Source: a virus
Length of the DNA: 64,000 nucleotides
Reading direction: 5' to 3' (one strand)
IMG/VR virus record: IMGVR_UViG_3300043436_002883
Location: 32,001-96,000 of that record
In this document: in pieces, positions 1-12,055 of the stretch
Layout of the letters: each line of letters starts with the position of its first letter
Position numbering within the stretch: position 1 is the first letter of the stretch
Position numbers and translations under genes: made by a program
The notes under the pieces: model-generated
Databases searched by the model: none
Told to the model about the DNA's origin: nothing
What the model saw: only the letters and a program-made list of their open reading frames with translations

Positions 1-85
1 AAAAAGTCCTGCATTGCTTAGCGACTTGGGGATCCCCTGGTAGCCGCACCTGTACTCATGAAGAAGGTCCCTGGACCTACCTCAA

Positions 86-451
86 TTATACCATAACTAG
101 TTGACTGTATTTACTACAGAATTTATCTAAAGATAAACTAAACACTTCTGTAGTTAGGTCCTCTTCAAACAAAGTAAACGTTTGAGTGGACCAATCAATT
201 ACAGGAATCTTGTGCTCATTATCTAGAATTCTATTAACACTTAAGCCCCAGCCTGTCTCGGACTTCCAGTCTTCGTTAATCATTTGTGATACACAAATAC
301 GTGTAGCATATGATTCATCCGTCCACCTTGGCCGTGCTGCCTCGACAGCATTGGCTAAGCGCTCCAACATACCGTGGCCTGCCCAGTGTCCGTATAGAAA
401 GATTGTATCCCCCTTGGAATCTTTAAATCCAAAGTTTGCTCTGTCTCCCAT
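86..451 (-). CDS. hypothetical phage protein (FLYGHWAG motif)
   Basis: 121-aa ORF in a co-oriented, tightly packed gene run. Confidence 0.8.
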   Translation of the reverse strand: MGDRANFGFKDSKGDTIFLYGHWAGHGMLERLANAVEAARPRWTDESYATRICVSQMINEDWKSETGWGLSVNRILDNEHKIPVIDWSTQTFTLFEEDLTTEVFSLSLDKFCSKYSQLVMV

Positions 452-452
452 T

Positions 453-662
453 TTATTCCGCCGTTTCTAGTTGAGGTACTGCTTCTTCTATTTTGTTTAA
501 TTCTATCACTTCGTATGAGACCTTGTCAAGGCCTGCTTTGTTTTTATTGTAGTGGTGGCCACAAAAGAACAGTTCACCATCTACTAGTTTAATTAAATAC
601 ATAGCCTGAGCTGTGCCACATTGGTCGCAGCCGATCCATCTTGTTAGGTCTTCAGTTGTCAT
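453..662 (-). CDS. small Zn-finger protein
   Basis: CDQC...CGHH motif; ATGA overlap with upstream gene. Confidence 0.75.
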   Translation of the reverse strand: MTTEDLTRWIGCDQCGTAQAMYLIKLVDGELFFCGHHYNKNKAGLDKVSYEVIELNKIEEAVPQLETAE

Positions 663-805
663 AGTTTCCCGCCTTCTATCATTTCACAAAGACGGTCAAG
701 AATCCAAGTATCGATATCATTAATATCAATCTCTGATAGTCTTTCCATCATTTCTTCACGAGCAAATTTATACCCGTCATCAAAACCATCTTTGTAATCT
801 GACAT
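659..805 (-). CDS. small acidic hypothetical protein (48 aa, MSDYKDGFDDGY...)
   Basis: Translated by hand; AGGAG RBS; fills the gap between neighbours with overlapping stop/start. Confidence 0.75.
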   Translation of the reverse strand: MSDYKDGFDDGYKFAREEMMERLSEIDINDIDTWILDRLCEMIEGGKL

Positions 806-1017
806 TATTTCTCCTTGTATCCTGTCGCTTCTCTGTCTGACCAGTAACTCTCAGTTAGATTATACTTGTCACGAATGCGACTTACTTTCTCAATACTACC
901 AGTTCCAATGTTGAATGTCAACGGTGACATTGCTTCGGGGTCGAGCCCTGTGATTTGTGCATCCCAATAGGCCATCTCCATAGATAGCCTATCGGGAGCA
1001 GTCAACTCAAAATACAT
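805..1017 (-). CDS. hypothetical protein
   Basis: 70-aa ORF, TAATG coupling on both sides. Confidence 0.75.
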   Translation of the reverse strand: MYFELTAPDRLSMEMAYWDAQITGLDPEAMSPLTFNIGTGSIEKVSRIRDKYNLTESYWSDREATGYKEK

Positions 1018-1676
1018 TATGCTTCTCTAACGTGGCAAACTTCGGTGTCATCAATTTGAATGTTACCGTTATTTGATTCAGCATAAAGAGCATCTGTAAC
1101 TTCTGAATCAAGGTCTAATTCATAGTCGGAGTCAAGAATGTTGTATGTATATGTTCCGCTAACTTCAAGAGTTGCGGTGAATAGAACTTCTCTTACGAGT
1201 TCAATTGAAAGCGCTTCAGCAATTGCACGAAGTGTATCTTTATCCTCTGAGTCTTCATATGCCTCAGTGATAATATCTTTGACTTTGTTAATCTTGTCTT
1301 CAAATACTCCGACACGCTTCTGTGATTGACGTGCATTGTGTAGGTCCCACTCAATTGATGTAACCTTATCAGTTGCATATTCCGCATCTGAGTATCCCTT
1401 GATTACTTTATAGGTAACCAAAAGATTAGGATTATATGTATCGGGAATTGTTGTAGTTGTTGGTTCTTCCATTTTTTCCTCTTTCGTTTGGGTTGTTGGA
1501 GCAATTGTAGCATTGACCACTGACAATAAGACTGGCTTACGGCCACACGGGCAAGTGATTTCCATCACACCCGACGGGAATCCAAAACCGTCAGATGATG
1601 TTAGTTCTATTAGTACATCACAATTGTCTGGGTCACAGGCAAATGTATATTTAGTTGATACTAGTTCGTTGGTCAT
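1017..1676 (-). CDS. hypothetical protein with N-terminal Cys cluster; likely leaderless start at 1676 and a second in-frame start at 1472
   Basis: ATG 1676 is 6 nt after a TACAAT -10; internal promoter at 1504-1525 and a GAAAGAGG leader precede ATG 1472. Confidence 0.7.
   Translation of the reverse strand: MTNELVSTKYTFACDPDNCDVLIELTSSDGFGFPSGVMEITCPCGRKPVLLSVVNATIAPTTQTKEEKMEEPTTTTIPDTYNPNLLVTYKVIKGYSDAEYATDKVTSIEWDLHNARQSQKRVGVFEDKINKVKDIITEAYEDSEDKDTLRAIAEALSIELVREVLFTATLEVSGTYTYNILDSDYELDLDSEVTDALYAESNNGNIQIDDTEVCHVREA
1504..1525 (-). promoter_or_regulatory. TGTCAG-N10-TACAAT promoter (inside CDS)
   Basis: TGTCAG TGGTCAATGC TACAAT. Confidence 0.7.
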
Positions 1677-1682
1677 GGAAGA

Positions 1683-1787
1683 ATTGTACCAGGGCCCACT
1701 GACATATACAAGCTTTTCCAGGGAATTTTTTATCATTCCCGTATGATCAATATCACACCCGCAATACTGCGGGCATTGTCGACAAAT
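1683..1787 (-). promoter_or_regulatory. regulatory cassette 1: TGTCAG-N10-TACAAT promoter, CCAGGG scaffold, near-CRP box (1742-1757), CCCGCA/TGCGGG palindrome, TTGTCGACAA
   Basis: Motifs read directly and shared with other cassettes. Confidence 0.75.
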
Positions 1788-1792
1788 CTATT

Positions 1793-1869
1793 TGGCGACC
1801 CCTACGGGACTTGAACCCGTGACCTCTACCGTGACAGGGTAGCGCTCTAACCAACTGAGCTAAGAGATC
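1793..1869 (-). tRNA. trnD: tRNA-Asp (GTC)
   Basis: GATCTCT TAGCTCAGTTGGTTAGAGC GCTACC CT-GTC-AC GGTAG AGGTC ACGGG TTCAAGT CCCGT AGGGGTC G CCA; cloverleaf with encoded CCA. Confidence 0.95.
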
Positions 1870-1873
1870 TTGC

Positions 1874-1901
1874 AGGCAGTTTTAAATCTTGCCTAGGATT
1901 T
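1874..1901 (-). ncRNA. candidate small H-type pseudoknot RNA element, copy 1
   Basis: AAATC-CTAGGCAA-GATTT-AAAAC-TGCCT; covaries with copies at 3643 and 4198. Confidence 0.45.
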
Positions 1902-1908
1902 TTATTAT

Positions 1909-2916
1909 TTAGAAAGTTGCAACCATTCGATACAACTTATTTTTTTCTGCGGTAAGAATTGGGTCAAAACCTGATGCACCCGCCATAAGTGTTTCAGAAT
2001 TGCCACGACCTGAACGATAGTAATCAAGGCGCTCAGTTAGTGCATTGAACGCACCCCACTTAGTTCCCTTGATTGTAGCGTTAGTTGGTGAGTTATGATA
2101 AAGGTCATCAAGTAGAACAACCTTATTCTCCCACTTAGTTAGCGCAACTTTAGCAGCATCTTTATCTGGCTTAGGATAAATTGTCTGAATCAACTTAGAG
2201 AATTCAGCATCAGTAATTGCCTGAGAGTAAAGTGCTTTTGCTTGAACTTCGAATTCATCAAAGTATCCAAGAGCAAGCCCAAGAGTTTCACGAGCAACTT
2301 GAATGCGACCTTCAACAGATTGCGTGTGGCGAATCTTGAAAGATTGCTTAGCATTCTTCATTGCAAGGTTTAGCGTGTTTTGGCATACAACACGAACAGG
2401 AGTAACGGCTGCTTGAACAGCAACAGAACCATCGTGTGATGTCCATACGATAAGATAAAGTTTAGTTTCATCATTAGCGCCTTGTGGGTCAAGAACCATT
2501 GTGCGGGGAATATCTACAGTTCCGAACACAACTTTGCCCTTCTTCAATGAGCCAGCAGATTCCCAACGGCAATCGGCATTAGCATCGTGAATTGCATCAG
2601 CGAATGCAAATAGTTCTTCATTCTGAACTGGCTTGTAACGCTTACCAACAGTTGCAAGAACATCAGTTCCGCCATTGAATGGATTTGTGCGAACAACTAG
2701 AGATGAATCTGAAACATCATTCCAAGATTCGTCAATGTGATTTGTGATTGGAGATAAGCGAACATTCCAATTTGCTAACTTTGCTTCGCTAAGCATTGAG
2801 GCAGTTGTAACTTCCTCATCTTTTGCAAAGATACGATTTGCTAGGTTGTGCCAAGCAGGTGCGCCACGGAGAGCGAAAGCAACTTCGCCATTTTCCATTT
2901 CGAGATTATGAGCCAT
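1909..2916 (-). CDS. DUF932 family phage/plasmid protein
   Basis: MAHNLE start, WH, YKPVQNEELF, SHDGS, TPVRVVCQNTL, IRHT and GTKWGAFNALTE motifs typical of the family. Confidence 0.85.
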   Translation of the reverse strand: MAHNLEMENGEVAFALRGAPAWHNLANRIFAKDEEVTTASMLSEAKLANWNVRLSPITNHIDESWNDVSDSSLVVRTNPFNGGTDVLATVGKRYKPVQNEELFAFADAIHDANADCRWESAGSLKKGKVVFGTVDIPRTMVLDPQGANDETKLYLIVWTSHDGSVAVQAAVTPVRVVCQNTLNLAMKNAKQSFKIRHTQSVEGRIQVARETLGLALGYFDEFEVQAKALYSQAITDAEFSKLIQTIYPKPDKDAAKVALTKWENKVVLLDDLYHNSPTNATIKGTKWGAFNALTERLDYYRSGRGNSETLMAGASGFDPILTAEKNKLYRMVATF

Positions 2917-2947
2917 ATTTATTTCCTTTCGGTTGGTTGATTAGTTT

Positions 2948-3098
2948 ATTATAACAGGTGGCACTGACATTGTATAGAGTTAGTTACAATATGTCCGAAT
3001 TGATCCGTGTGAGTAATCTCACAAATTTCCAGGGCTTTTCCACAGGAAGCCGTAAGCCTGTGGATAACCCCGCAGCTTTGGGGGCATTGTCGACAAAT
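2948..3098 (-). promoter_or_regulatory. regulatory cassette 2: TGTCAG-N10-TATAAT promoter, CRP box 3008-3023, DnaA boxes 3036-3044 and 3059-3067, palindromes
   Basis: TGTGAgtaatcTCACA; TTTTCCACA; TGTGGATAA; TTGTCGACAA. Confidence 0.8.
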
Positions 3099-3103
3099 AG
3101 ATA

Positions 3104-3130
3104 GGGCGGGATTTTAAATTGATCCCGCCC
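3104..3130 (-). terminator. GC-rich hairpin, probable terminator
   Basis: GGGCGGGAT-N9-ATCCCGCCC just past the stop of 3137-3364. Confidence 0.6.
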
Positions 3131-3136
3131 CAGCTT

Positions 3137-3364
3137 TTAATTTGTTTGGAATTTATTAGTTATACTTTCATCAAGGAACATTGCTGTAACCTTTTTCTTT
3201 TTTACATTGTCATACACGTAAGCATTTACTCTTCCGCTAAACTTACGCAAATTAGAAAAAACTAATTCAGTTAGGTATTCTCTATCAACACCTTGCTCTG
3301 AATAAATAGTTACATCATTTGCTTTGTTTGCGTCATAGATTTCTACACGATAACGATTTTTCAT
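3137..3364 (-). CDS. hypothetical protein
   Basis: 75-aa ORF; upstream TAGACA...TGTTATAAT promoter at ~3392-3420. Confidence 0.75.
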   Translation of the reverse strand: MKNRYRVEIYDANKANDVTIYSEQGVDREYLTELVFSNLRKFSGRVNAYVYDNVKKKKVTAMFLDESITNKFQTN

Positions 3365-3432
3365 TTTATTCTTTCTTTAGTAGGGATAAGAATTATAACA
3401 TTGGGGCTAGGTTCTGTCTAGCCCCCATAAGA

Positions 3433-3615
3433 TTATGCGCCGATTTTTACCATAGCCCAACGCAAACCATTTTCTGTATTCAATCCAAGTTTAGTTAGAG
3501 TTGGACGAATAGAAACGATTTCCGTGATAGTGCCAGTAATTCCTGATTTGCCAGTTGTGAATACATCGCCCTTGCGATAGAAGCGACCCTTAGCGGTATC
3601 TAGAATTGGTGACAT
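3433..3615 (-). CDS. small beta-rich protein, paralog of 4263-4436
   Basis: Start reassigned to ATG 3615 after the AACGAAAGG leader; YxxGDxFTT..S..TG.I.EI...T.NG.RW shared with paralog. Confidence 0.75.
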   Translation of the reverse strand: MSPILDTAKGRFYRKGDVFTTGKSGITGTITEIVSIRPTLTKLGLNTENGLRWAMVKIGA

Positions 3616-3642
3616 TTTATTTCCTTTCGTTAGTTGGTTGGT

Positions 3643-3670
3643 TGAGCAGTTTAGCAACTTGCTCAGGTTG
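3643..3670 (-). ncRNA. candidate small pseudoknot RNA element, copy 2
   Basis: CAAC-CTGAGCAA-GTTG-CTAAAC-TGCTCA. Confidence 0.45.
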
Positions 3671-3708
3671 TTAGGGTTCAGGACTTTAGGTTGCCCCCCT
3701 AAGTTTAG

Positions 3709-4125
3709 TTAGAGATACTTAGCAATCTGCTTCATTGTGGAAGCATTTACTGTTTCCTCATCTGTCATTTTGAGAATTGTGAGAGCATTTGTGATGTCCT
3801 CTTTGATTTCACGATACTGATGTGTATGAACTACCTCAAAATCCTTTTCAGGTTCTTTAGGAAAAGTTCCCTCTTTAGTGATAATGTCAAAATCAACATT
3901 GAGAGTGTTGTTCCATTGGCGATAGTTTGTGCGAAGGTTCTCAGCCTTTGAGAAGTTAGCAATAGCCCACTTGCCTACTTCCTTTTTCCAAGCCTCATAA
4001 GCCTTAGTGTGCTTTGCTTCATTTGCTGTTTGGTCTGCGTAGTCCTTTTCCAATTTAGCAAGGCGAGTTTCTAGTGCCTTGATTACTTTGGTCGTTGCTA
4101 CCTTTACTGTGATTTGTCTGCTCAT
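3709..4125 (-). CDS. hypothetical coiled-coil protein
   Basis: 138-aa ORF with AACGAAAGG leader and own promoter. Confidence 0.8.
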   Translation of the reverse strand: MSRQITVKVATTKVIKALETRLAKLEKDYADQTANEAKHTKAYEAWKKEVGKWAIANFSKAENLRTNYRQWNNTLNVDFDIITKEGTFPKEPEKDFEVVHTHQYREIKEDITNALTILKMTDEETVNASTMKQIAKYL

Positions 4126-4160
4126 TTATTTATTGCCTTTCGTTGGTTGGTTGTTTGAGT

Positions 4161-4182
4161 AGTATAACATAGGGGTCTGACA
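4161..4182 (-). promoter_or_regulatory. TGTCAG-N10-TATACT promoter
   Basis: TGTCAG ACCCCTATGT TATACT. Confidence 0.75.
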
Positions 4183-4262
4183 TTTACCCCGAAGGGTGAG
4201 AGTTCTTACTTAGGACATTGGGCGAGAACACTCTCTAAACTGCCCCTGTTTCCTTTATTTAG

Positions 4263-4436
4263 TTATGCTAGACTATCGGCAAGAACTGTTGTCCAGCGTT
4301 CTCCGTTGTCTGTTTCCAGACGAACTCTCACCGAGCCAGATGAGTTAGGAATAATCTCTTTGATTACGCCTGTTTCTTTAGACTTCAGGGTAGTGAATAA
4401 ATCACCGACCTGATAGACTTTGTTATCTATTGTCAT
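4263..4436 (-). CDS. small beta-rich protein (57 aa), paralog of 3433-3615
   Basis: Hand translation MTIDNKVYQVGDLFTTLKSKETGVIKEII...; GAAAGGA RBS. Confidence 0.75.
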   Translation of the reverse strand: MTIDNKVYQVGDLFTTLKSKETGVIKEIIPNSSGSVRVRLETDNGERWTTVLADSLA

Positions 4437-4462
4437 TTTGCTTCCTTTCTTGTTAGTGTCCT

Positions 4463-4540
4463 ATTATAGCAAAGGGGTCTGACATTTTCTACCCCAATCT
4501 CATTATGCGAGATACCAAGCGTGTGAGATAACTCACACGC
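4463..4540 (-). promoter_or_regulatory. regulatory cassette 3: TGTCAG-N10-TATAAT promoter plus CRP box 4522-4537
   Basis: TGTCAG ACCCCTTTGC TATAAT; TGTGAgataacTCACA. Confidence 0.8.
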
Positions 4541-4552
4541 CTAGTTTTGATC

Positions 4553-4834
4553 TCAGTATTCGCTTTCAGGTAGCCAAGCGTCTAAGTGGTGTTGTTCAAT
4601 AATAGCGGAGGCAGGTGCAAACTTTTCTCCACGATACAATACGCCTTCAGGCATTTCGATTAGTTTATTATAGTCCTCGTCATAGTATGCATCGATAGCA
4701 TCTATGCAAGGTTGCACCATAGAAAGTGGAACGGGTGGGTAATGATTACCTTGTAGGTGATAACCGATAGCGGTTTCTAAATCTAAATCGAATAAATCAT
4801 TATCCGCTAATTCTGTTGCAAAGTTACTTCCCAT
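4553..4834 (-). CDS. hypothetical phage protein (HLQGNHYPP...HHL motif)
   Basis: 93-aa ORF in co-oriented run. Confidence 0.8.
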   Translation of the reverse strand: MGSNFATELADNDLFDLDLETAIGYHLQGNHYPPVPLSMVQPCIDAIDAYYDEDYNKLIEMPEGVLYRGEKFAPASAIIEQHHLDAWLPESEY

Positions 4835-4836
4835 TA

Positions 4837-5061
4837 TTAGTTACCTTCCTTGATAGTTACTTCAGCCCAAGTGTTATTTTCATTTGCAATTTGCAATACC
4901 TTAGCCTCAGCAAGTGCGTGTAGTGTTGCACCCTTGCACATCGTTAGTAAATCTGTTTCAGTTAGTTTTAGTAATGCAGGTAATAGGTTAGCAGGTATTT
5001 TATCAAGGTCAATAATAGCCTCGAATACTATGGAGTGTGGAACTTTTATTTGATTAGACAT
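4837..5061 (-). CDS. hypothetical protein
   Basis: 74-aa ORF with AACGAAAGG leader. Confidence 0.75.
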   Translation of the reverse strand: MSNQIKVPHSIVFEAIIDLDKIPANLLPALLKLTETDLLTMCKGATLHALAEAKVLQIANENNTWAEVTIKEGN

Positions 5062-5090
5062 TTGTTACCTTTCGTTGTTGGAATAAGAGT

Positions 5091-5254
5091 ATTTTAGCAT
5101 AGGCCACTGACATTACCTAATCCATTATGGGCGTGTCGCAGCTTTTGTGATAATACTCACATTTTTGGGGGGTTGTGGATAACTGCCGTAAACCTGTGGA
5201 TAAGCCGCCACCTTTGCGGGCCAGCTTGATCTTGTCAAGTCGACACGCCGTTAG
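5091..5254 (-). promoter_or_regulatory. regulatory cassette 4: TGTCAG-N10-TAAAAT promoter, CGACACGCC boxes, CRP box 5146-5161, DnaA boxes 5174-5182 and 5195-5203
   Basis: Motifs read directly. Confidence 0.8.
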
Positions 5255-5346
5255 CCTTTAAGTACGGCCCATATAGCAATTGGAATCGGAAGTACAATAG
5301 CGCTAATAAATATAATTGCAAGAATTGATCCGAGAGTATCTGCCAT
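5251..5346 (-). CDS. 31-aa membrane peptide
   Basis: MADTLGSILAIIFISAIVLPIPIAIWAVLKG; TAATG coupling to upstream gene. Confidence 0.6.
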   Translation of the reverse strand: MADTLGSILAIIFISAIVLPIPIAIWAVLKG

Positions 5347-6065
5347 TATTTTTTACTCGCAGAAAATCTAATATCCGCTTTACCGTAGACACATAAGCCA
5401 CAAGATACACAAGCGGACCCAGCATTGCTAATAAGCGGAATGCTTTTCATATTCTCTGGACACTTAGCACCAGGCTTGCCAGTCAATTCTTTCATTGTGC
5501 TCTCAGTTACGGCGAATGTCTTTCCTAGATAAGCAAGGCGGATACCAGAATTAACTTTCAAATCATGGCCCGTTTCTTTATTCTCATCATCGGTAGAATA
5601 ATAAAGAGATAGATTAGATACATCCTTAAGAATAAGCGCTGCAGACTTTACTCGTGTATAAACCCAAAATTGAACATCGGGGTGGTTAGAAATAATAGTC
5701 TTCCAGGCATAGGTATAAGTATCATTGAAGAAATCTCCGTCCCAGTGGATACGGAATAACTTAGGAGCGTCTTTCTTTTCACAATCTGCAACAAATTCTA
5801 CAATCATCTCATCTAATAGAATAAGCATAGTATCGGTATCTGCATTGCGTAGCAATTCCCAGTTGTGCAGAAGATTAGCCTTTACTCCCTTGAAGAGCTT
5901 TTCGAGTTTTCCTGCGTAGCAAACACTCTCACAAATACTAGTGGCACCAGGGCATGAGTAAGCCTTTCCAGCGGGGAGACCGAACGTGTTAGCAATTGCG
6001 GCTTGCTTTCCATTTTTTGTGACAAGGTTAGCCACCTTTCTATCATTAGAACGTTTTAGTTTCAT
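5346..6065 (-). CDS. gp88-like (Gene product 88) Cys-rich, radical-SAM-related protein
   Basis: CPGATSICESVCYA, FRIHWDGDF, FWVYTR, CP and CxxCxxC motifs; start reassigned to leaderless ATG 6065. Confidence 0.75.
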   Translation of the reverse strand: MKLKRSNDRKVANLVTKNGKQAAIANTFGLPAGKAYSCPGATSICESVCYAGKLEKLFKGVKANLLHNWELLRNADTDTMLILLDEMIVEFVADCEKKDAPKLFRIHWDGDFFNDTYTYAWKTIISNHPDVQFWVYTRVKSAALILKDVSNLSLYYSTDDENKETGHDLKVNSGIRLAYLGKTFAVTESTMKELTGKPGAKCPENMKSIPLISNAGSACVSCGLCVYGKADIRFSASKK

Positions 6066-6072
6066 AGGGGTA

Positions 6073-6094
6073 ATTATAGCGGTTAGATCTGACA
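6073..6094 (-). promoter_or_regulatory. TGTCAG-N10-TATAAT promoter (leaderless transcript)
   Basis: TGTCAG ATCTAACCGC TATAAT, 7 nt before ATG. Confidence 0.75.
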
Positions 6095-6096
6095 TA

Positions 6097-6306
6097 TTAG
6101 TAATCCTCATCCATTCCGTGTCCTGCAGACGCAAGAGCGTCGGAATCGGACCAGCCCGTTAGTTCATAGAATTCCATTTCTTCAGAATCATAGCATTCTG
6201 CACACATATAGTCATCACCGAATACTTCATAATCAGACTCAGAATCAAAAGTCATAGTTGTGCCACAAATTTCAGAGTTTAGGCAAGCGACGGTAAATAG
6301 TTCCAT
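6097..6306 (-). CDS. small acidic Zn-binding protein (DSDALASAGHGMDEDY C-terminus)
   Basis: C-x4-C and CxxC; AACGAAAGAGG leader. Confidence 0.8.
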   Translation of the reverse strand: MELFTVACLNSEICGTTMTFDSESDYEVFGDDYMCAECYDSEEMEFYELTGWSDSDALASAGHGMDEDY

Positions 6307-6336
6307 AATGGACCTCTTTCGTTAGTAGATATTGGA

Positions 6337-6454
6337 ATTATAGCAGGTTAGACTGACATTTGCTAATCGACACGCAAATTTCCAGGGTGTTTTAGATCAC
6401 ACCCTTAACGACACGCCCGACCCCGTAGCTATGTGGGCGCTTTGTCGACAAATT
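6337..6454 (-). promoter_or_regulatory. regulatory cassette 5: promoter, two CGACACGC boxes, CCAGGG scaffold, half-CRP box, palindromes
   Basis: Motifs read directly; same offsets as cassette 2. Confidence 0.75.
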
Positions 6455-6458
6455 AATT

Positions 6459-6590
6459 TTATTGATCGAATTTATTTTTATGTTTGATCTTGCGTGTGTA
6501 TTTTTTTTTATTGCGAACAGGTTGCGCCGCATTACTGCGACGCAATTCCTGAATGCGTTTTACTTTATCTTGAAGTGAAGTTAGGAACAT
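6459..6590 (-). CDS. 43-aa basic peptide (ELRRSNAA...KKKYTRKIKHK)
   Basis: Hand translation. Confidence 0.6.
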   Translation of the reverse strand: MFLTSLQDKVKRIQELRRSNAAQPVRNKKKYTRKIKHKNKFDQ

Positions 6591-6756
6591 TATACCCACT
6601 CGCTTCGTGAAATCGTTTTACATCAAATCGCTCATTGTCAATCGCAAACATTTCCGCAAAATCATTTACGATTTTAGAAAATACAGCGGGGTGAGTTTTA
6701 TTGCTCGCATACTTTAGAATTTCTGCGGTTGCGATGTAATCTTTTCGTGTCATCAT
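6565..6756 (-). CDS. hypothetical phage protein (MTRKDY...DNERFD..RF family)
   Basis: Recognisable small phage family pattern. Confidence 0.8.
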   Translation of the reverse strand: MMTRKDYIATAEILKYASNKTHPAVFSKIVNDFAEMFAIDNERFDVKRFHEASGYNVPNFTSR

Positions 6757-6956
6757 TTTACTACGACCTCTCCTGAACGATAAAATAATTTAGTATACAT
6801 TTTGCCAGTTGGCGTTGATAGATTTACAGTTGAGTATTCGTTAGCCATTCCCCAATCGGTAAAACGGAAAAAGTTTTCCCACGCACCAAATTCGTTTTCG
6901 TATTCGGCAGACCAATGCGGAGCGTTGCTATCATAAGCGCAAGTTAGTTTATACAT
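6753..6956 (-). CDS. hypothetical protein
   Basis: 67-aa ORF, coupled to neighbours. Confidence 0.75.
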   Translation of the reverse strand: MYKLTCAYDSNAPHWSAEYENEFGAWENFFRFTDWGMANEYSTVNLSTPTGKMYTKLFYRSGEVVVK

Positions 6957-7120
6957 TATTCATTCACCCAATCTACAGTTAGTTCATCAGAAATTTCATC
7001 TACGCAAGCGCAAGGCTCTACATCATAATTATTTTCATTTCCAAAGAATAAAAATCCTGCGCCACCGCATTCATCACATTCAGCAGAAATAATTTCTATG
7101 TATTCTTTTACTTTAGCCAT
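6956..7120 (-). CDS. small Zn-finger protein (54 aa)
   Basis: CDECGG...PCAC; AACGAAAGGG leader. Confidence 0.7.
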   Translation of the reverse strand: MAKVKEYIEIISAECDECGGAGFLFFGNENNYDVEPCACVDEISDELTVDWVNE

Positions 7121-7238
7121 TTAGGTTTTCCCTTTCGTTTGTTTGAGTTGTAATTGTAGCAGATAGCACTGACAAGGCTTGCGCCTTGCTTGCTTCACGT
7201 TGTGCGATAACGTGCTTCTTGAATTCGTCTAAGTTCAT
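7113..7238 (-). CDS. 41-aa peptide overlapping a promoter
   Basis: MNLDEFKKHVIAQREASKAQALSVLSATI...; AGGAG RBS. Confidence 0.55.
   Translation of the reverse strand: MNLDEFKKHVIAQREASKAQALSVLSATITTQTNERENLNG
7153..7174 (-). promoter_or_regulatory. TGTCAG-N10-TACAAT promoter
   Basis: TGTCAG TGCTATCTGC TACAAT. Confidence 0.75.
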
Positions 7239-7360
7239 TCGAACGCTCCTTCTTCTAGTAATCCTAATTCGATGTTGAATAATTCATCTGGAGTGGCTTC
7301 GGCTAAATCAACCCAGCCCGCACCATCTTCATTCATTCTGAAAATTTCGATGTATCCCAT
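7235..7360 (-). CDS. 41-aa acidic peptide
   Basis: MGYIEIFRMNEDGAGWVDL...; abuts neighbours. Confidence 0.65.
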   Translation of the reverse strand: MGYIEIFRMNEDGAGWVDLAEATPDELFNIELGLLEEGAFE

Positions 7361-7362
7361 TA

Positions 7363-7569
7363 TTATTCACCAACCTTTACTGCGATTGTTGCGAATTTAT
7401 TTCGCAGACCGCCCGTGCGAATTTCGATTAGATACGCTTCGGTTTTTTCGCCGTAGTAAATTTCAGGGCGAGCCTCAGCAGAAACGATTTCGCCTGAAAA
7501 GTGGCGAGAGTTTGAGCGATAGTTTTTTCCTACAAGTAGGCTTTCGATTGTGTAGAGTTTAGTAGCCAT
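7363..7569 (-). CDS. hypothetical protein
   Basis: Start reassigned to ATG 7569 after AACGAAAGAAGG leader. Confidence 0.75.
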   Translation of the reverse strand: MATKLYTIESLLVGKNYRSNSRHFSGEIVSAEARPEIYYGEKTEAYLIEIRTGGLRNKFATIAVKVGE

Positions 7570-7604
7570 TAGTGGCACCTTCTTTCGTTGTTGTTATAGT
7601 AGAG

Positions 7605-7846
7605 ATTATACACGAACGGACTGACATTTTCCAATTTGGCAAGGGTTTGTCTCATTATTTGGAGCGTGGGCTTTGTGATAAGCATCACACAAGTTATGTG
7701 ATAAGCATCACACAAAATGTCCGATTTGTCTGTCAAGTCGACACGCCGTAGAATCCAGGGAATTTTATAACGACTTCATAACGACACGCCCGACGCCGCA
7801 CCCTTGTGGGCGCAGCTGTCAATTTGTCAAGTCGACACGCCGTTAG
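7605..7846 (-). promoter_or_regulatory. regulatory cassette 6: promoter, tandem CRP boxes (7674-7689, 7697-7712), three CGACACGCC boxes, scaffold
   Basis: TGTGAtaagcaTCACA twice; TGTCAAGTCGACACGCCG twice. Confidence 0.8.
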
Positions 7847-7942
7847 TTATTCAAAATCTTCAAATATTTTTTCTAGTTGAAGAATTTGCTCATCGGTAAG
7901 ATGATCTAATTCAATTGCGTGTTCAAATCCATAAAATTCCAT
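7847..7942 (-). CDS. 31-aa acidic peptide
   Basis: MEFYGFEHAIELDHLTDEQILQLEKIFEDFE; TAATG coupling. Confidence 0.55.
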   Translation of the reverse strand: MEFYGFEHAIELDHLTDEQILQLEKIFEDFE

Positions 7943-8136
7943 TATTCGTTTTCCATTTCTGCTAAATAATCTTCGTGTTCAACTAGGCCAATCGCAAATG
8001 CTACTGGGTCGCAACATTCTAGAATTTCGGCGGGAGTAAAAGTAGAGTAACCAATTTTTACAGTAGGATAAACATCATTTAGTAAGTCAATAAAACTTTC
8101 TTTGATTTCTAAATCTTTTTCTAATTGTGATTTCAT
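7942..8136 (-). CDS. hypothetical phage protein (IL..CDP.AF motif)
   Basis: 64-aa ORF with AGGAG RBS. Confidence 0.8.
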   Translation of the reverse strand: MKSQLEKDLEIKESFIDLLNDVYPTVKIGYSTFTPAEILECCDPVAFAIGLVEHEDYLAEMENE

Positions 8137-8252
8137 TTATATTCTCCTTTTGAGATAAGTTCGTCTAGCATTTTTGCTAAATCGGGGTGAATGCCAATTG
8201 GGGCATCTTTCCAATAATTTTCTAATTCTAAGTTAGTAACGAAATCTCTCAT
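8133..8252 (-). CDS. 39-aa peptide
   Basis: Hand translation; overlaps both neighbours. Confidence 0.55.
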   Translation of the reverse strand: MRDFVTNLELENYWKDAPIGIHPDLAKMLDELISKGEYK

Positions 8253-8443
8253 TAGATACACGCTACGCATTCGCATTTAGGATTTTCACGAATAAGAACT
8301 TTTAGCAAAACCTTGCGTTGATAAACGCTAAGACCATAAGTGCTTTTAGCACCACCATTATTCCAATCGTGGAGAATACGATTTTCAAGAGCACCAGATA
8401 TTCCTAGTGCTAAGCCGATATTTGTTTTTTCTAGTGTAGTCAT
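8252..8443 (-). CDS. hypothetical protein with C-terminal CxCxxC
   Basis: Start reassigned to ATG 8443 after GAAAGG. Confidence 0.7.
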   Translation of the reverse strand: MTTLEKTNIGLALGISGALENRILHDWNNGGAKSTYGLSVYQRKVLLKVLIRENPKCECVACI

Positions 8444-8477
8444 TTGAGACCACCTTTCTTTTTGTTTGTATGTCGCT

Positions 8478-8674
8478 AGTATAGCAGGGGGGTCTGACAT
8501 TTTGACCCCTTTTTCGGGCGTGTCGGAAAACTATTTTTGTGATAAACCTCACAAATTCTAGGGTGTTTATCCACAGACCCTTAATCACCCTGTGGATAAC
8601 TCCCTCAAGTACTTGCGGGCGGATCAGCTTTTGTCAAGCCGACACGCCGTTAGGTTAGTGTGATTTATCCCACT
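8478..8674 (-). promoter_or_regulatory. regulatory cassette 7: promoter, CGACACGCC boxes, CRP box 8538-8553, DnaA boxes 8567-8575 and 8591-8599
   Basis: TTATCCACA and TGTGGATAA; TGTGAtaaaccTCACA. Confidence 0.8.
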
Positions 8675-8780
8675 CTCTAAAGTCTGCGACGATCTCCCGC
8701 CACATTAGGCGCATCATTAGCAGGGTAGGTATTCCGATACCTATTTGGACGGCGGTAGTTAGTAGGCGATTAGTAGTCAT
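8655..8780 (-). CDS. 41-aa membrane peptide
   Basis: Hydrophobic core; TAATG coupling. Confidence 0.55.
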   Translation of the reverse strand: MTTNRLLTTAVQIGIGIPTLLMMRLMWREIVADFREWDKSH

Positions 8781-8935
8781 TACTTATTCTTCTTTCTCTT
8801 GTAAATCTTATAGGCGGTTATTACTAGGGCGGTGATAATGATAGTGTGCCAAGGTAGATAGATAGCCCCTAAGAAACTATCTAATTCTAATCCGTAGTCG
8901 CTTGTTATGTATAACTCTAATCCGTCCGCTATCAT
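8780..8935 (-). CDS. 51-aa membrane peptide
   Basis: TM segment followed by KRKKNK; TAATG coupling. Confidence 0.6.
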   Translation of the reverse strand: MIADGLELYITSDYGLELDSFLGAIYLPWHTIIITALVITAYKIYKRKKNK

Positions 8936-9102
8936 TAGTCATTCCAATCTAGTGTTAGTGATTTGTGTAATTCATCATCATCAAAATCATCAGCGCCAAA
9001 ATCTACGCCTTCTGCTAGTGCCTTGTTATAGGCTTCTTCTTCATCTATGTAGACATAAGCATCTGCTACATCTGCCTGAATAGTATCCCATTTAGTCATC
9101 AT
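8935..9102 (-). CDS. 55-aa acidic peptide
   Basis: Hand translation; TAATG coupling. Confidence 0.6.
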   Translation of the reverse strand: MMTKWDTIQADVADAYVYIDEEEAYNKALAEGVDFGADDFDDDELHKSLTLDWND

Positions 9103-9251
9103 TACATTGACACCTTTCTCATATGTGCCACTACATTAGTGGAAACCTTTTGTAAGTCTGCTACGACTTTATTCATTTCATCTGCGCTATTAGCGGTAAA
9201 GTCAACGCCTAGTAATTGTGCGCCGTCCCATAGTGAGTATGTTATTGTCAT
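9102..9251 (-). CDS. 49-aa hypothetical protein
   Basis: MTITYSLWDGAQLLG...; AAAGGA RBS. Confidence 0.65.
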   Translation of the reverse strand: MTITYSLWDGAQLLGVDFTANSADEMNKVVADLQKVSTNVVAHMRKVSM

Positions 9252-9292
9252 TTTATTTTCTATCCTTTGTTAGTAGTTGTTAGTTAGTTGTT

Positions 9293-9344
9293 GAGCGGTT
9301 ATTTGCTAGGCTCACCTTTCGGATTATTTGCTAGGCTCACGCTC
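9293..9344 (-). repeat. two 17-bp direct repeats (GTGAGCCTAGCAAATAA) around a CC-GAAA-GG hairpin, inside a GAGCG/CGCTC stem
   Basis: Copies at 9299-9315 and 9324-9340. Confidence 0.8.
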
Positions 9345-9371
9345 TAATTCTTATTTAGTTGTTATGCTGTA

Positions 9372-9438
9372 ATTGTAGCCGATAGGGCTGACATTTACAA
9401 GCGACACGCCGTTAGGCGTTAGTGTGATTATGCTCACA
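9372..9438 (-). promoter_or_regulatory. regulatory cassette 8: promoter, CGACACGCC box, CRP box 9423-9438
   Basis: TGTCAG CCCTATCGGC TACAAT; TGTGAttatgcTCACA. Confidence 0.75.
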
Positions 9439-9516
9439 CTTGGACTCTATCTCGTGTCCATATTCCTCTACGAGTTCCTCGTAGATTTCATCCATATAGT
9501 CTAGATAATCGTTCAT
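9412..9516 (-). CDS. 34-aa acidic peptide
   Basis: MNDYLDYMDEIYEELVEEYG...; AGGAG RBS. Confidence 0.55.
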   Translation of the reverse strand: MNDYLDYMDEIYEELVEEYGHEIESKCEHNHTNA

Positions 9517-9683
9517 TAGTTATTCTCCTTTCCAAGAGTGTTGTGTGTAGCGTAGTTACCGCCACACATTACGCAGAGTGTCCAAGCGGTTACTCTACCG
9601 CACCCTGCTGAGCAAGATACATAGCCTAGACGCTGAGCGTCATTCTGATAGTCGTTACGACTTTCCCAAATTCTATTTGTCAT
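9516..9683 (-). CDS. 55-aa Zn-finger peptide
   Basis: CSAGC...CVMC; GAAAGG RBS. Confidence 0.65.
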   Translation of the reverse strand: MTNRIWESRNDYQNDAQRLGYVSCSAGCGRVTAWTLCVMCGGNYATHNTLGKENN

Positions 9684-9736
9684 TTTATTGACCTTTCTTT
9701 ATTAAGGTTAACTCCTTGTTAACTTCTTATACTATA

Positions 9737-9865
9737 AGCCTAACAGGGGGGACTGACATTTAGGGGGGTTACTGATGAGTATTCTCAAACTATTTTTGTG
9801 AGTTACACCACACTCACGCTCAAAATTATAGGGTTATGGGCGCACTATCGGACAAATCGGACATT
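9737..9865 (-). promoter_or_regulatory. regulatory cassette 9: promoter, near-CRP box 9797-9812, TCGGACA repeat
   Basis: TGTCAG TCCCCCCTGT TAGGCT; TGTGAgttacaCCACA. Confidence 0.65.
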
Positions 9866-10219
9866 AAAAATAGTGTGTATCATACATATTAAAAATATAT
9901 TAACATTTTCTCAAAAGTGACTTTGATCTATTGACTTACGAAAATATCAAATGTTATACTTGGAAAGGTTTCGGGGGGTTACACTAAGACTCAATATACC
10001 AAGTAATGCTTGGATTAGAATCTAGTAAAGCTCTCCCCTATCTTTCCAAAAAGATTTTTTAAATTTGGGGGGTAGGGGGGGTTTGCTAAAATCTAATTCC
10101 CAAGTATCCACTATACAATAAATGATAAAGATAAACAATATAGAAAAAATATTTTATTAACATTATGTAAAATCTTAAATCCTAGTCGACTGATAATTAT
10201 ACTGCTATATAATTAAGCT

Positions 10220-10501
10220 ATGTCTCCAGAGAAGATGTCGATCAAGAAACAAAAAGACTATCTGGCACGTTATTTAAAAGAGATAAAAGAAAAGAACCCT
10301 TGTATGGATTGCAAGATATCCTATCCGTATTATATGATGGACTTTGATCATGTTCGTGGAACCAAACATGCAAATGTGGCGGAACTAATCAATACGTTAT
10401 CTAAGAAACGAATAGATGCAGAAATAGCCAAGTGTGAGATAGTATGTTCTAATTGCCATAGAATAAGAACACATATGAGAAAAAAGCGGAAGGCAGGATA
10501 A
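10220..10501 (+). CDS. HNH endonuclease
   Basis: CMDC...FDH...KCEIVCSNCHRIRT. Confidence 0.9.
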   Translation: MSPEKMSIKKQKDYLARYLKEIKEKNPCMDCKISYPYYMMDFDHVRGTKHANVAELINTLSKKRIDAEIAKCEIVCSNCHRIRTHMRKKRKAG

Positions 10502-10612
10502 ATGAAATTTTGTAGTTATTGCGATAAGCTATCATATACATCTAAGATGTTAACAGATGGATCTATGAGATATTACTGCTCAGATCATGCATTAAATATT
10601 GCAGTTGACTAG
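10502..10612 (+). CDS. 36-aa Zn-finger peptide
   Basis: MKFCSYC...YYCSDH. Confidence 0.6.
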   Translation: MKFCSYCDKLSYTSKMLTDGSMRYYCSDHALNIAVD

Positions 10613-10632
10613 GATTATGGTATAATATAAAA

Positions 10633-10710
10633 ATGAACTGGATACAAGCAACAGTCATATTTGGACCAATAGTGGTTCTACTAATAGCATTTTGGAAAGA
10701 TATCAAATGA
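10633..10710 (+). CDS. 25-aa membrane peptide (leaderless)
   Basis: MNWIQATVIFGPIVVLLIAFWKDIK; ATG 6 nt after TGGTATAAT. Confidence 0.55.
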   Translation: MNWIQATVIFGPIVVLLIAFWKDIK

Positions 10711-10850
10711 AAAAGATCTATGCGTTAATTGCGTTAACTGCGACAGCAGTCTTATCAGGTGTAGCTTTGTCTAAATTTTTAAATTGGGCGGGACAGATAG
10801 AAATCTTTGATTTTGACCTAGATGAAGATATTGATCTTGAAGACTTCTAA
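10707..10850 (+). CDS. 47-aa membrane peptide with acidic tail
   Basis: MKKIYALIALTATAVLSGVAL...DFDLDEDIDLEDF; ATGA overlap. Confidence 0.6.
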   Translation: MKKIYALIALTATAVLSGVALSKFLNWAGQIEIFDFDLDEDIDLEDF

Positions 10851-10920
10851 ACTATATAGGTCAATACTCTGGCTATCTTGGCTTCTTATGGGTATGTATA
10901 TTATATCCTGGCTATTGTAG
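10837..10920 (+). CDS. 27-aa membrane peptide (TTG start)
   Basis: MKTSKLYRSILWLSWLLMGMYIISWLL. Confidence 0.35.
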   Translation: MKTSKLYRSILWLSWLLMGMYIISWLL

Positions 10921-11127
10921 AAAATTGCTAGCTTTTTTTCTCCCGCCCTTTTAAGGGCTTTTGTATCGGAGATACCAATTATGACCCTTTAAGGGCTTAG
11001 AACCCTCGTAGAGGGCTTATATGGGATATTCTAGAAAATAGCATAGATGACAAATGTGGTCTTCTCTCGCCGAAGCACTTTTTTCGCACTTTTTGCACTA
11101 TATGTCTAATATGTCTGTATTGTTACT

Positions 11128-11403
11128 TTATTTTTCAATAATCATAACTGCACAAGTTACAGTATTATCTTCGCCAAGAGCCCAAAGTCTGTCATCCTTA
11201 TACACATCTATAGACAAAGGCATTGAATCGTGTTCTAGTCTAATCCCGTAATTTGTAGTGCTTACATCGCTATTTCCAATAATGAGATGCTTATTGGAGC
11301 TTGTATTAGATATTATCAGTGTTGACTTTGCATTGATCTCATCTTCAATTGTTAGTTCAACAGGCGTTGTGTTATCTAGCGTATAGTTTCTAGTTCTTAT
11401 CAT
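11128..11403 (-). CDS. small beta-sandwich phage protein
   Basis: 91-aa ORF, G.SDV....YGI.L pattern. Confidence 0.75.
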   Translation of the reverse strand: MIRTRNYTLDNTTPVELTIEDEINAKSTLIISNTSSNKHLIIGNSDVSTTNYGIRLEHDSMPLSIDVYKDDRLWALGEDNTVTCAVMIIEK

Positions 11404-11407
11404 TTGA

Positions 11408-12055
11408 TTAACCCATTACCCAATCGCTGTGCTTATAGACCCAGTCAACAAAAGTATATTTAATTCCAGATGTAACATCTTTTGACTTATATACCTGTCC
11501 TCCATCTATAGGAAAGCAATACAAAGTGTTTGTTTCAGGAAGAATTTCAGATCCATCTGATAATGTTATAATTTCTCCGCCAGTCCATTCACCAAGGTAA
11601 TAGCATGCTACATAGTCTGCTGATTTCCAGGTGTCTGCTCCGCCCCATATTCTATCTACATTGTCACTAGGTCTTGTTCTGTTAATTGTGTTATGTTCGT
11701 TAGTCCAGTATTCGTTAATTATACATTCAATAATTGAAGAGTTTAAAGTTTGAATGGAAAGAGGTGTAGAAATTCTACCGTGAATTTCAGAGTCTGTTGG
11801 GTGAGTAGACCAAGACTCTTCATCAAGAGCATCACATTGAAATAGTATATAGTTGTAGTCATCCAGGTTTAACAAGTCTGGGTATTTAAGAATTCCATTG
11901 CCCATATCAACAAACCCTAGCTTTTTACTAAGATGAACTTGTTCAATTGGACGGTCACCTTTAGATTCAGAAATAGATATTTCATTAGATATTTCTTCAA
12001 CAGGTTCTTCGTTATTGTTTTCAGGTAGATTTGTTTCCCAAATAATTTCAGCCAT
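11408..12055 (-). CDS. degenerate 2OG-Fe(II) oxygenase-fold protein
   Basis: YYL.EWTGGEI, P..NTLYCFP and VTSGIKYT are retained; Fe-binding His residues are absent. Confidence 0.65.
   Translation of the reverse strand: MAEIIWETNLPENNNEEPVEEISNEISISESKGDRPIEQVHLSKKLGFVDMGNGILKYPDLLNLDDYNYILFQCDALDEESWSTHPTDSEIHGRISTPLSIQTLNSSIIECIINEYWTNEHNTINRTRPSDNVDRIWGGADTWKSADYVACYYLGEWTGGEIITLSDGSEILPETNTLYCFPIDGGQVYKSKDVTSGIKYTFVDWVYKHSDWVMG

Follow-up and report, generated by a model that had tools for sequence, protein, structure and literature searches.

In a 64,000-nucleotide stretch of DNA from an uncultured virus (bases 32001–96000 of the 109,282-bp IMG/VR virus record IMGVR_UViG_3300043436_002883, hereafter the window), we characterized a family of repeated intergenic cassettes within a leftward block of small genes. 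The cassettes fill the 80–190 bp gaps between genes and combine a rigid frame with two exchangeable slots, upstream of promoters that resemble those of the actinobacterial activator PafBC. On balance, we favor the view that they are modular, combinatorial upstream control regions of these PafBC-type promoters, and we infer all of the binding and regulatory effects that such control would involve.

The virus is an uncultured actinophage, because its portal protein shares ~60% identity with its counterparts in Streptomyces phages such as BillNye, it encodes a WhiB protein, and it has a GP88-family gene in common with mycobacteriophages. Its GC content is ~40%, the DNA sources that hold matching stretches are lake and freshwater metagenomes, and megablast gave no match to cultured phages. 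The minus strand carries all genes from window position 9760 to approximately genome position 28,400, forming a leftward small-gene block of 13.4 kb. The sequence-only reading that first pointed to the cassettes had described them on the plus strand; since all genes of the block lie on the minus strand, that description has to be reverse-complemented to follow transcription.

Read along the gene strand, a cassette starts at the end of the upstream unit (sometimes marked by a canonical terminator), followed by the boundary word TTGTCGACAA or ACGGCGTGTCGACTTGACA and a GC hairpin that we term HP1. Slot A (12 nt), TTAnGG, slot B (15 nt), CCCTGG and then AAATTT come next. The final part usually contains a perfect CRP-type palindrome, sometimes TCGGACA or an inverted CGACACGCC, before TGTCAG-N10-TAnnnT, a leader that finishes in AACGAAAGG, and the ATG. 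The rigid frame can be written as GGG-N13-TTAnG-N15/16-CCCTGRA with its two slots; what fills them is a DnaA box (facing either way), a GCGTGTCG box, a CRP-like site or AT-rich filler. The plus-strand offsets proposed earlier (CCAGGG with further elements at +21 and +39) are exact at 1718, 3029, 6382 and 7755, and the two copies called partial are indeed so, with a degenerate anchor (TTGGGG) at 5165 and, at 8558, the anchor CTAGGG and a 3-nt insertion in slot A. The cassette tails were also recovered, TTGTCGACAA at 1776, 3087 and 6442 and TGTCAAGTCGACACGCCG at 5233, 7731, 7825 and 8632 (the last with one mismatch), and inspection of the slots agreed with the earlier listing of paired DnaA boxes in cassettes 2, 4 and 7 and of half-CRP, CRP-like or AT-rich contents in the others.

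Chance is excluded as a source of these words, since whole-window shuffles never reached the observed counts: TGTGA-N6-TCACA occurs 7 times against 0.13 expected, TTATCCACA 6 times against 0.66, and CGACACGCC 9 times against 0.06. No CRP-type palindrome (7 in total), GGCGTGTCG copy (9) or TTGTCGACAA copy (3) in the 109-kb genome falls outside window positions 1776–9438.

The core promoter is equally regular. Thirteen TGTCAG-N10-TAnnnT sites lie between window positions 1504 and 9758, all on the gene strand, and every scaffold stands 19–115 nt upstream of such a site. The spacing between the -26 element and TAnnnT equals that of the published PafBC consensus, tGTCgg(N10)tA(N3)T (PMC8635444), and there is no -35 hexamer at 17 ± 1 bp, where the sequence reads AAAATG or CAATGT-like, not TTGACA. 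For a view of the host side we used three 1.5-Mb host-like genomes (G118, G069 and G039), which were picked by class, size and box content and may not be those of the host. All three carry a WYL-domain (pafBC-like) gene pair and TGTCAGTG-N8-TAnnnT directly before radA, and in an Aquiluna metagenome-assembled genome (MAG) the strict promoter word gave one match against one control match, which carries no information. Six-frame searches of the phage for WYL, Crp helix-turn-helix (HTH) and DnaA C-terminal domains returned none. We think it fairly likely that PafBC of the host would read the core promoter. Contigs from four RNA libraries, which give no starts, ends or strand, map on the block; we attach no meaning to their low depth over bins that contain cassettes.

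The elements of the six scaffold-bearing cassettes, as read from the sequence, are as follows (window positions; no strand is given for palindromic elements).

Cassette 1
1683–1704, minus: promoter (TGTCAGTGGGCCCTGGTACAAT)
1718–1775, minus: scaffold 1, with CCCTGG at 1718–1723, AT-rich slot B at 1724–1738, centre ATACGG at 1739–1744, slot A at 1745–1756 and HP1 at 1757–1775
1742–1757: CRP-like TGTGATATTGATCATA, spanning slot A
1776–1785: boundary word TTGTCGACAA, a palindrome, directly after tRNA-Asp
1793–1869, minus: tRNA-Asp, adjoining the boundary word

Cassette 2
2948–2969, minus: promoter, expected to drive the DUF932 gene at 1909–2916
2992–2998, minus: TCGGACA box within conserved AATTCGGACAtAT
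3008–3023: CRP-type palindrome TGTGAGATTACTCACA, centre at about -74.5
3029–3086, minus: scaffold 2, with CCCTGG at 3029–3034, TTACGG at 3050–3055, slot A TTATCCACAGGC at 3056–3067 and HP1 at 3068–3086
3036–3044: inverted DnaA-like box in slot B, TTTTCCACA on the plus strand
3087–3096: boundary word TTGTCGACAA, where homology with most relatives breaks
3105–3131, minus: canonical terminator-like hairpin with a T-rich tail, ending the upstream unit (gene 3137–3364)

Cassette 4
5091–5112, minus: promoter
5130–5138, minus: CGACACGCC box in inverted orientation, near -50
5146–5161: CRP-type palindrome, centre at about -69.5
5165–5222, minus: scaffold 4, with degenerate anchor CCCCAA, TTACGG at 5186–5191 and HP1 at 5204–5222
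5174–5182 and 5195–5203, minus: slot B and slot A, each TTATCCACA; direct boxes with starts 21 bp apart
5233–5251, minus: boundary word ACGGCGTGTCGACTTGACA, just past the stop of a 31-aa open reading frame (ORF)

Cassette 5
6337–6358, minus: promoter
6368–6375, minus: GCGTGTCG box between anchor and promoter
6382–6441, minus: scaffold 5, with CCCTGG, slot B GTGTGATCTAAAACA, TTAAGG, slot A TCGGGCGTGTCG and HP1 at 6421–6441
6442–6451: boundary word TTGTCGACAA

Cassette 6
7605–7626, minus: promoter
7674–7689 and 7697–7712: two identical CRP-type palindromes, starts 23 bp apart
7718–7724, minus: TCGGACA box
7731–7749, minus: internal copy of the word ACGGCGTGTCGACTTGACA
7755–7814, minus: scaffold 6, with CCCTGG, AT-rich slot B AGTCGTTATAAAATT, TTATGA, slot A TCGGGCGTGTCG and HP1 at 7794–7814
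7825–7843, minus: boundary word ACGGCGTGTCGACTTGACA

Cassette 7
8478–8499, minus: promoter
8517–8525, minus: CGACACGCC box near -50
8538–8553: CRP-type palindrome, centre at about -74.5
8558–8622, minus: scaffold 7, with anchor CCCTAG, TTAAGG, slot A TTATCCACAGGGTGA of 15 nt (3 nt longer) and HP1 at 8600–8622
8567–8575: inverted DnaA box in slot B, TTATCCACA on the plus strand
8632–8650, minus: boundary word ACGGCGTGTCGGCTTGACA, with one mismatch

The GTGTGATCTAAAACA in slot B of scaffold 5 is a degenerate CRP-like site that is full-length in relatives. Downstream of the cassette 1 promoter, the ATG at 1676 follows the -10 hexamer TACAAT by 6 nt and has no Shine-Dalgarno sequence, and for these reasons the first gene is probably expressed from a leaderless transcript. 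The 31-aa ORF beside cassette 4 (5255–5348) is hydrophobic (MADTLGSILAIIFISAIVLPIPIAIWAVLKG) and ends inside the boundary word; other boundary words are also preceded by similar tiny ORFs.

To follow the cassettes in relatives, we searched IMG/VR with the DUF932 protein, which yielded 289 related stretches, and fetched 80 loci. The frame recurs in hundreds of related lake-phage contigs, and an 18-mer boundary word in more than 117. Across 61 distinct orthologues of the DUF932 cassette, the boxes are 0.92–1.00 conserved against 0.48–0.71 for the spacers. Unbiased 9-mer counts over 1356 distinct promoter-upstream regions returned GGCGTGTCG, TTATCCACA, CCCTGGAAT and TGTGAGATT as the top words. 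When 100 scaffold copies, both paralogues and orthologues, were aligned, TTA and CC alone were invariant, 21 bp apart. The DnaA boxes obey the same geometry: pairs facing the same way start 21 bp apart (118 cases, 95 forward-forward and 23 reverse-reverse), and pairs with one box flipped start 23 bp apart (81 cases).

A fixed geometry with swappable slots, as first proposed from the one genome, also describes the relatives, where orthologous cassettes keep frame, flanks and length while their boxes are flipped or replaced. Upstream of orthologues of the gene at 4837–5061, the slots hold two direct DnaA boxes in 22 strains, a DnaA box with an inverted DnaA box in 4, GCGTGTCG with a CRP-like site in 3, and unrelated filler in 1. 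These exchanges leave the hairpin, TTACG, CCCTG, the CRP site and the promoter flanks in place (L075:3693-3992, L030:7342-7641, L035:5150-5449); in other strains, as at L008:2134-2433, an entire cassette has given way to another. Box flips of this kind also occur in the DUF932 cassette, along with two replacements without a change in length. Some relatives (e.g., L128:11496-11795 and L101:6245-6544) have the palindrome TTGAGCGTCTCAA and TTACTGGCTAGTA repeated between the CRP site and the promoter, elements absent from the window.

Among the slot words, the DnaA box has the best-supported reader. The genome contains 8 copies of TTATCCACA against 0.8 expected, and the cassettes hold five perfect TTATCCACA boxes plus TTTTCCACA, all fitting the 9-mer TTWTNCACA. 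The 1356 promoter-upstream regions contain 420 perfect boxes, and their one-mismatch variants are concentrated at position 3 (A>T, 81 cases) and position 5 (25 cases), with at most 12 for any other change; this mutation spectrum fits TTWTNCACA and thus points to DnaA. A TTATCCACA(G) box with the same N12 gap, and therefore the 21-bp spacing, lies between dnaA and dnaN in the three 1.5-Mb genomes of the class, from which the true host may differ, and the same arrangement is found in the box cluster of the rplI-dnaB spacer of the Aquiluna MAG. We hold it to be quite probable that host DnaA reads TTATCCACA.

The CRP-type palindrome stands at quantised distances from the promoter. With the transcription start assumed, site centres cluster at -64.5, -74.5 and -84.5, plus -69.5, with at least 26 different downstream gene clusters for each, and positions 6 and 11 of the palindrome covary symmetrically. 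Each host-like genome encodes one Crp, and the phage none. A CRP reading of the palindrome is plausible, and the odds seem even that the reader would be Crp of the host rather than a phage protein of the same specificity. In G118, G069 and G039, ~1.4 perfect TGTGA-N6-TCACA sites per genome would be expected by chance and 0 were found, which may reflect avoidance of the perfect site.

For the third word, GGCGTGTCG, 7 of the 9 copies lie on the gene strand. Five of the nine contain CACGCCG, the 7-mer footprinted by MtrA within the dnaA promoter of M. tuberculosis (PMC2945938), and GGCGTGTCG is not enriched in the host-like genomes, so its reader is possibly phage-encoded. The same is probably true of the reader of GCGTGTCG and that of the invariant TTA...CC. 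The proposal that the slots hold boxes of host regulators is therefore well supported for DnaA, by its box spectrum and oriC counterpart, plausible for CRP, and unsupported for CGACACGCC, which lacks enrichment in the host-like genomes.

The distal edge of the frame folds. HP1 has a mean fold energy of -9.4 against -5.2 for shuffled sequences, the opposite strand being weaker (-8.0), and 72.8% of cells are paired, with a covariation of 0.179 against 0.064–0.078 in slid controls. Column-wise pairing, at 72.8 against 71.6 shuffled, is barely above its control, which leaves the slid controls and the folds of single sequences as the basis for the hairpin. No U-run follows the stem, which is succeeded by TTATCC or TCGGGC; for that reason we interpret HP1 as a hairpin that insulates or forms a 3' end, and not as a classical terminator. 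We also considered an RNA hairpin as a general explanation of slot B and rejected it, as the slot folds better than shuffles in two slot classes and not in the others. An Rfam search of window positions 1–12000, with E up to 1, returned tRNA only.

Scaffold-like sequence also occurs outside the cassettes. At the far end of the leftward block lies a gene-free stretch (genome 27,650–28,450; L203:11650-12450, minus strand). Between 27.9 and 28.2 kb are two direct DnaA boxes 3 bp apart (28114–28134), one inverted box and a pair of scaffold-like repeats (TGTGGGCAAAAT...TTTACGA...ATCCCTGAAATTTG) that lack the GC hairpin; the gene-free stretch further contains two words resembling PafBC promoters. 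It could serve as an origin or as a T5-like signal, or it could encode a non-coding RNA.

Of the functions suggested earlier for the cassettes, setting transcription fits best, because it explains their position directly upstream of PafBC-type promoters, their strand, their geometry and the quantised distances of the CRP-type site. Proteins bound in the slots and at the palindrome, on fixed helical faces, would raise or lower the firing of the PafBC-type promoter, and separate gene blocks would thereby be tied to separate inputs. Exchange of whole cassettes and of single slots among paralogous cassettes in the phage population would then rewire the pairing of inputs and genes. A more specific and rather speculative version, to which we give limited credence, makes the frame a programmable enhancer: a protein would read TTA...CC and the hairpin edge and set the two slots on one helical face, the occupant (a DnaA oriC-like pair, a Crp-type dimer or the GCGTGTCG reader) would gate a promoter that already needs the single-stranded DNA (ssDNA)-sensing PafBC, and slot swaps would rewire a host signal to a takeover gene.

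Several observations weigh against promoter control. The distance from scaffold to promoter is multi-modal and shows no uniform helical phasing, and the CRP-site class at -69.5 is off phase. The DnaA boxes lie ~95–125 bp upstream of the presumed start, a long way by the standards of classical DnaA control, and the scaffold-like units at genome 27.9–28.2 kb sit in a stretch without genes. The invariant TTA and CC match no known reader. The three host-like genomes contain no perfect TGTGA-N6-TCACA (imperfect sites were not searched) and no excess of GGCGTGTCG over reversed controls, so that two of the three 'host' words may be phage-specific; that these genomes may not represent the host counts on the same side.

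The two strongest competitors of promoter control are both improbable in our estimation. One treats the boxes as a decoy or sponge that titrates host DnaA and Crp as the phage genome multiplies, halting replication initiation and catabolite control, with the nearness of promoters incidental. The boxes are perfect-consensus and presumably of high affinity, TTATCCACA is in excess (8 against 0.8), the paired-box spacing copies oriC, and the phage has 7 perfect palindromes against none in the three host-like genomes. Titration, however, has no need of fixed spacing, a fixed promoter distance, an invariant TTA/CC, placement on the gene strand or quantised CRP distances, all of which it leaves unexplained; moreover, 5–8 boxes per genome is a modest number, and many cassettes have no DnaA box. 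It is therefore the weaker account.

The other, which we likewise consider unlikely, sees recombination linkers or mobile promoter cassettes, in which frame, promoter and leader serve as short homology patches for shuffling gene blocks and the boxes are passengers. Exchange is real: different cassette types precede one gene across strains, single slots are swapped between kept flanks, and contigs from the RNA libraries join the hairpin of one cassette to that of another (6426>5214, 7800>5214) or one promoter to the leader of another (4153>8478). Ends of high-scoring segment pairs (HSPs) also cluster at distal cassette edges (63 at 3075–3099, 52 at 5250–5274 and 45 at 6450–6474). The expectation that homology would break in the scaffold held only in this part, since breaks are just as dense at cassette-free gene boundaries (88 at 4550–4574, 75 at 8125–8149 and 58 at 6050–6074) and so mark all gene boundaries, not cassettes alone. 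The box columns are, in addition, far more conserved than the spacers, and box mutations follow protein specificity, neither of which homology patches would need. Shuffling more plausibly follows from having repeated control regions than explains why they exist.

Replication elements are a very unlikely alternative, in which the DnaA-type cassettes would be origins or DnaA-dependent primosome-loading sites, in the manner of T4 origins, where a special promoter is coupled to an unwinding region; the primer or the opening would come from the promoter. The oriC-like spacing of the paired boxes fits, as does the class with a forward and an inverted box, a long inverted repeat that can fold so as to place a DnaA box in the stem of a hairpin, and the gene-free stretch with its three DnaA boxes and scaffold-like repeats is where such a role is least improbable. 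Yet each genome has several dispersed copies, many orthologous positions carry non-DnaA slots, no conserved AT-rich unwinding element accompanies the frame, and the direct-repeat class cannot form a hairpin.

We give very little credit to a DNA-entry pause of the T5 kind, put forward earlier as a ratchet or pause signal, in which DnaA at the membrane would hold incoming DNA at the cassettes and so let the block be expressed first. T5-like phages have 8 DnaA boxes in a fixed arrangement in their first-entering region, where a DnaA-based stop has been proposed, and by synteny with BillNye a physical end could lie near window 9.8–10.2 kb, beside the block. The phage boxes, however, have a spacing of 21 or 23 bp, against 3 bp within T5 pairs, stand scattered ahead of individual promoters and are missing from many cassettes; contigs of relatives pass straight through 9.5–10.6 kb and start at scattered places; and the T5 model is itself a proposal. 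Equally hard to credit is a frame with no present function, made of paralogous copies of one ancestral promoter region with equal offsets by descent: the cassettes are clearly homologous (60–85% identity over 30–60 nt), but the spacers are near-random while boxes, TTA, CC and spacing are fixed across at least 100 copies in hundreds of contigs, and slot content is replaced without a change in length.

The remaining promoters of the block, and the words associated with them, lie outside scaffolds.

1504–1525, minus: PafBC-type promoter-like site TGTCAGTG-N8-TACAAT, inside the ORF at 1017–1676 and just before a strong ribosome-binding site and the ATG at 1472
4161–4182, minus: PafBC-type promoter without scaffold
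4463–4484, minus: PafBC-type promoter with a CRP-type site alone ahead
4522–4537: CRP-type palindrome, centre at about -73.5
6073–6094, minus: PafBC-type promoter without scaffold, before the GP88-family gene at 5346–6134
7153–7174, minus: PafBC-type promoter without scaffold
9372–9393, minus: promoter without scaffold, with GGCGTGTCG at 9402–9410
9423–9438: CRP-type palindrome, centre at about -65.5, ahead of the promoter at 9372–9393
9737–9758, minus: first promoter of the leftward block, with CRP-like TGTGGTGTAACTCACA at 9797–9812
9848–9854 and 9857–9863, plus: two TCGGACA words

The promoter at 9372–9393 is followed by an unusually long leader (9295–9350) that contains the direct repeat GAGCCTAGCAAATAA twice. 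Upstream of the block, window positions 9879–10009 (~131 bases) are missing from locus L200, which is otherwise identical on both sides, and other relatives have variable inserts between ~9915 and 10200. A plus-strand ORF of 93 aa at 10220–10501, with an HNH-like pattern (CxxC...DHV...N...CSNCH) recognized by eye, adjoins the divergent control region. Within the block, Pfam searches of 20 ORFs assigned DUF932, GP88 and DUF7455 and found no DNA-binding, repressor or HTH family. The phage ribonucleotide reductase was of no use for host identification, as it matched only phage contigs mis-binned in MAGs of unrelated phyla; these phage-family contigs (L206–L220, reductase 79–96% identical) are binned as Saccharibacteria, Bacteroidia, Brevundimonas and a cyanobacterium, evidently in error.

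If promoter control is the correct reading, these lake phages, an abundant group, make their small genes, probably ones for host takeover, respond together to the level of the replication initiator, a Crp-type signal and an ssDNA/DNA-damage activator. Such modular, swappable promoter logic, built on one standard frame with inputs that strains exchange, would be a rare case in nature, and it would open a route to DnaA, Crp and PafBC in hard-to-culture streamlined freshwater actinobacteria as well as supply compact regulatory parts for actinobacterial engineering. The cassettes also allow a direct test of whether DnaA, bound to a box pair arranged as in oriC, can act on a promoter from ~100 bp upstream.

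We found no description of this cassette system in the literature. Promoters, CRP sites and a frame of this kind are all absent from the 60 kb that we scanned of the 127-kb genome of BillNye, the cultured phage whose portal protein is closest (~60%). BillNye does carry five TT[AG]TCCACA boxes within ~290 bp (L222:39429-39716, record positions 119,428–119,715), located where the strand switches near its right end, and one further box (L222:27693) elsewhere in the scanned part. What the present analysis contributes is the frame with its invariant TTA...CC, slot exchange at orthologous positions, the pattern of DnaA-box mutations, the match in oriC of host-like genomes, and host checks that came out negative for the CRP-type and GCGTGTCG words.

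The individual parts nevertheless resemble known systems. Repeated phage promoters in which a box near -30/-26 replaces the -35 element are familiar from the MotA-box middle promoters of T4, where sigma is appropriated with activators that T4 itself supplies (MotA/AsiA); the present phage, having no WYL protein, appears to borrow that of its host. The PafBC-dependent promoters of actinobacteria, mycobacteria among them, also known as RecA-NDp or 'sigma adaptation' promoters (PMC8635444), share the GTC-containing -26 element, the 10-nt gap, TAnnnT and the lack of a -35, but are single host DNA-repair promoters with no described upstream modules, whereas the phage has 13–20 copies with composite upstream cassettes. 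As in class I CRP/GlxR promoters, a perfect TGTGA-N6-TCACA lies upstream at discrete distances ~10 bp apart (-64.5, -74.5, -84.5), although the partner promoter here lacks a -35 and would already carry PafBC, and one class sits at -69.5.

Stoperators of Cluster A mycobacteriophages, a single 13-bp word read by the phage repressor to block elongation (PMC6550527), are likewise many copies of a short word in actinophage intergenic DNA, mostly in one orientation relative to transcription (7 of 9 for GGCGTGTCG); the cassettes differ in that several words are set in a fixed frame ahead of promoters, and among the 20 ORFs of the block there is no repressor gene. The first-injected region of T5 carries DnaA boxes, as the sequence-only reading had stated in agreement with the literature, its 8 boxes lying in one untranslated region of the terminal repeat as pairs 3 bp apart within long inverted repeats and with a 52-bp spacer (bioRxiv 10.1101/866236). 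Both systems place consensus DnaA boxes in non-coding phage DNA with a geometry strictly conserved across a phage group, but those of the cassettes are dispersed upstream of promoters, spaced by 21 or 23 bp and interchangeable with other words; a T5-like 3-bp pair is absent from the cassettes and occurs in the phage only at genome 28114–28134. A counterpart of the slots is found in the oriC regions of small low-GC actinobacterial genomes, where an identical TTATCCACA, often followed by G, recurs with the same 21-bp start-to-start spacing: the host copy stands among further boxes between dnaA and dnaN, whereas the phage copy precedes a promoter and has a hairpin, TTAnG and CCCTG as its frame.

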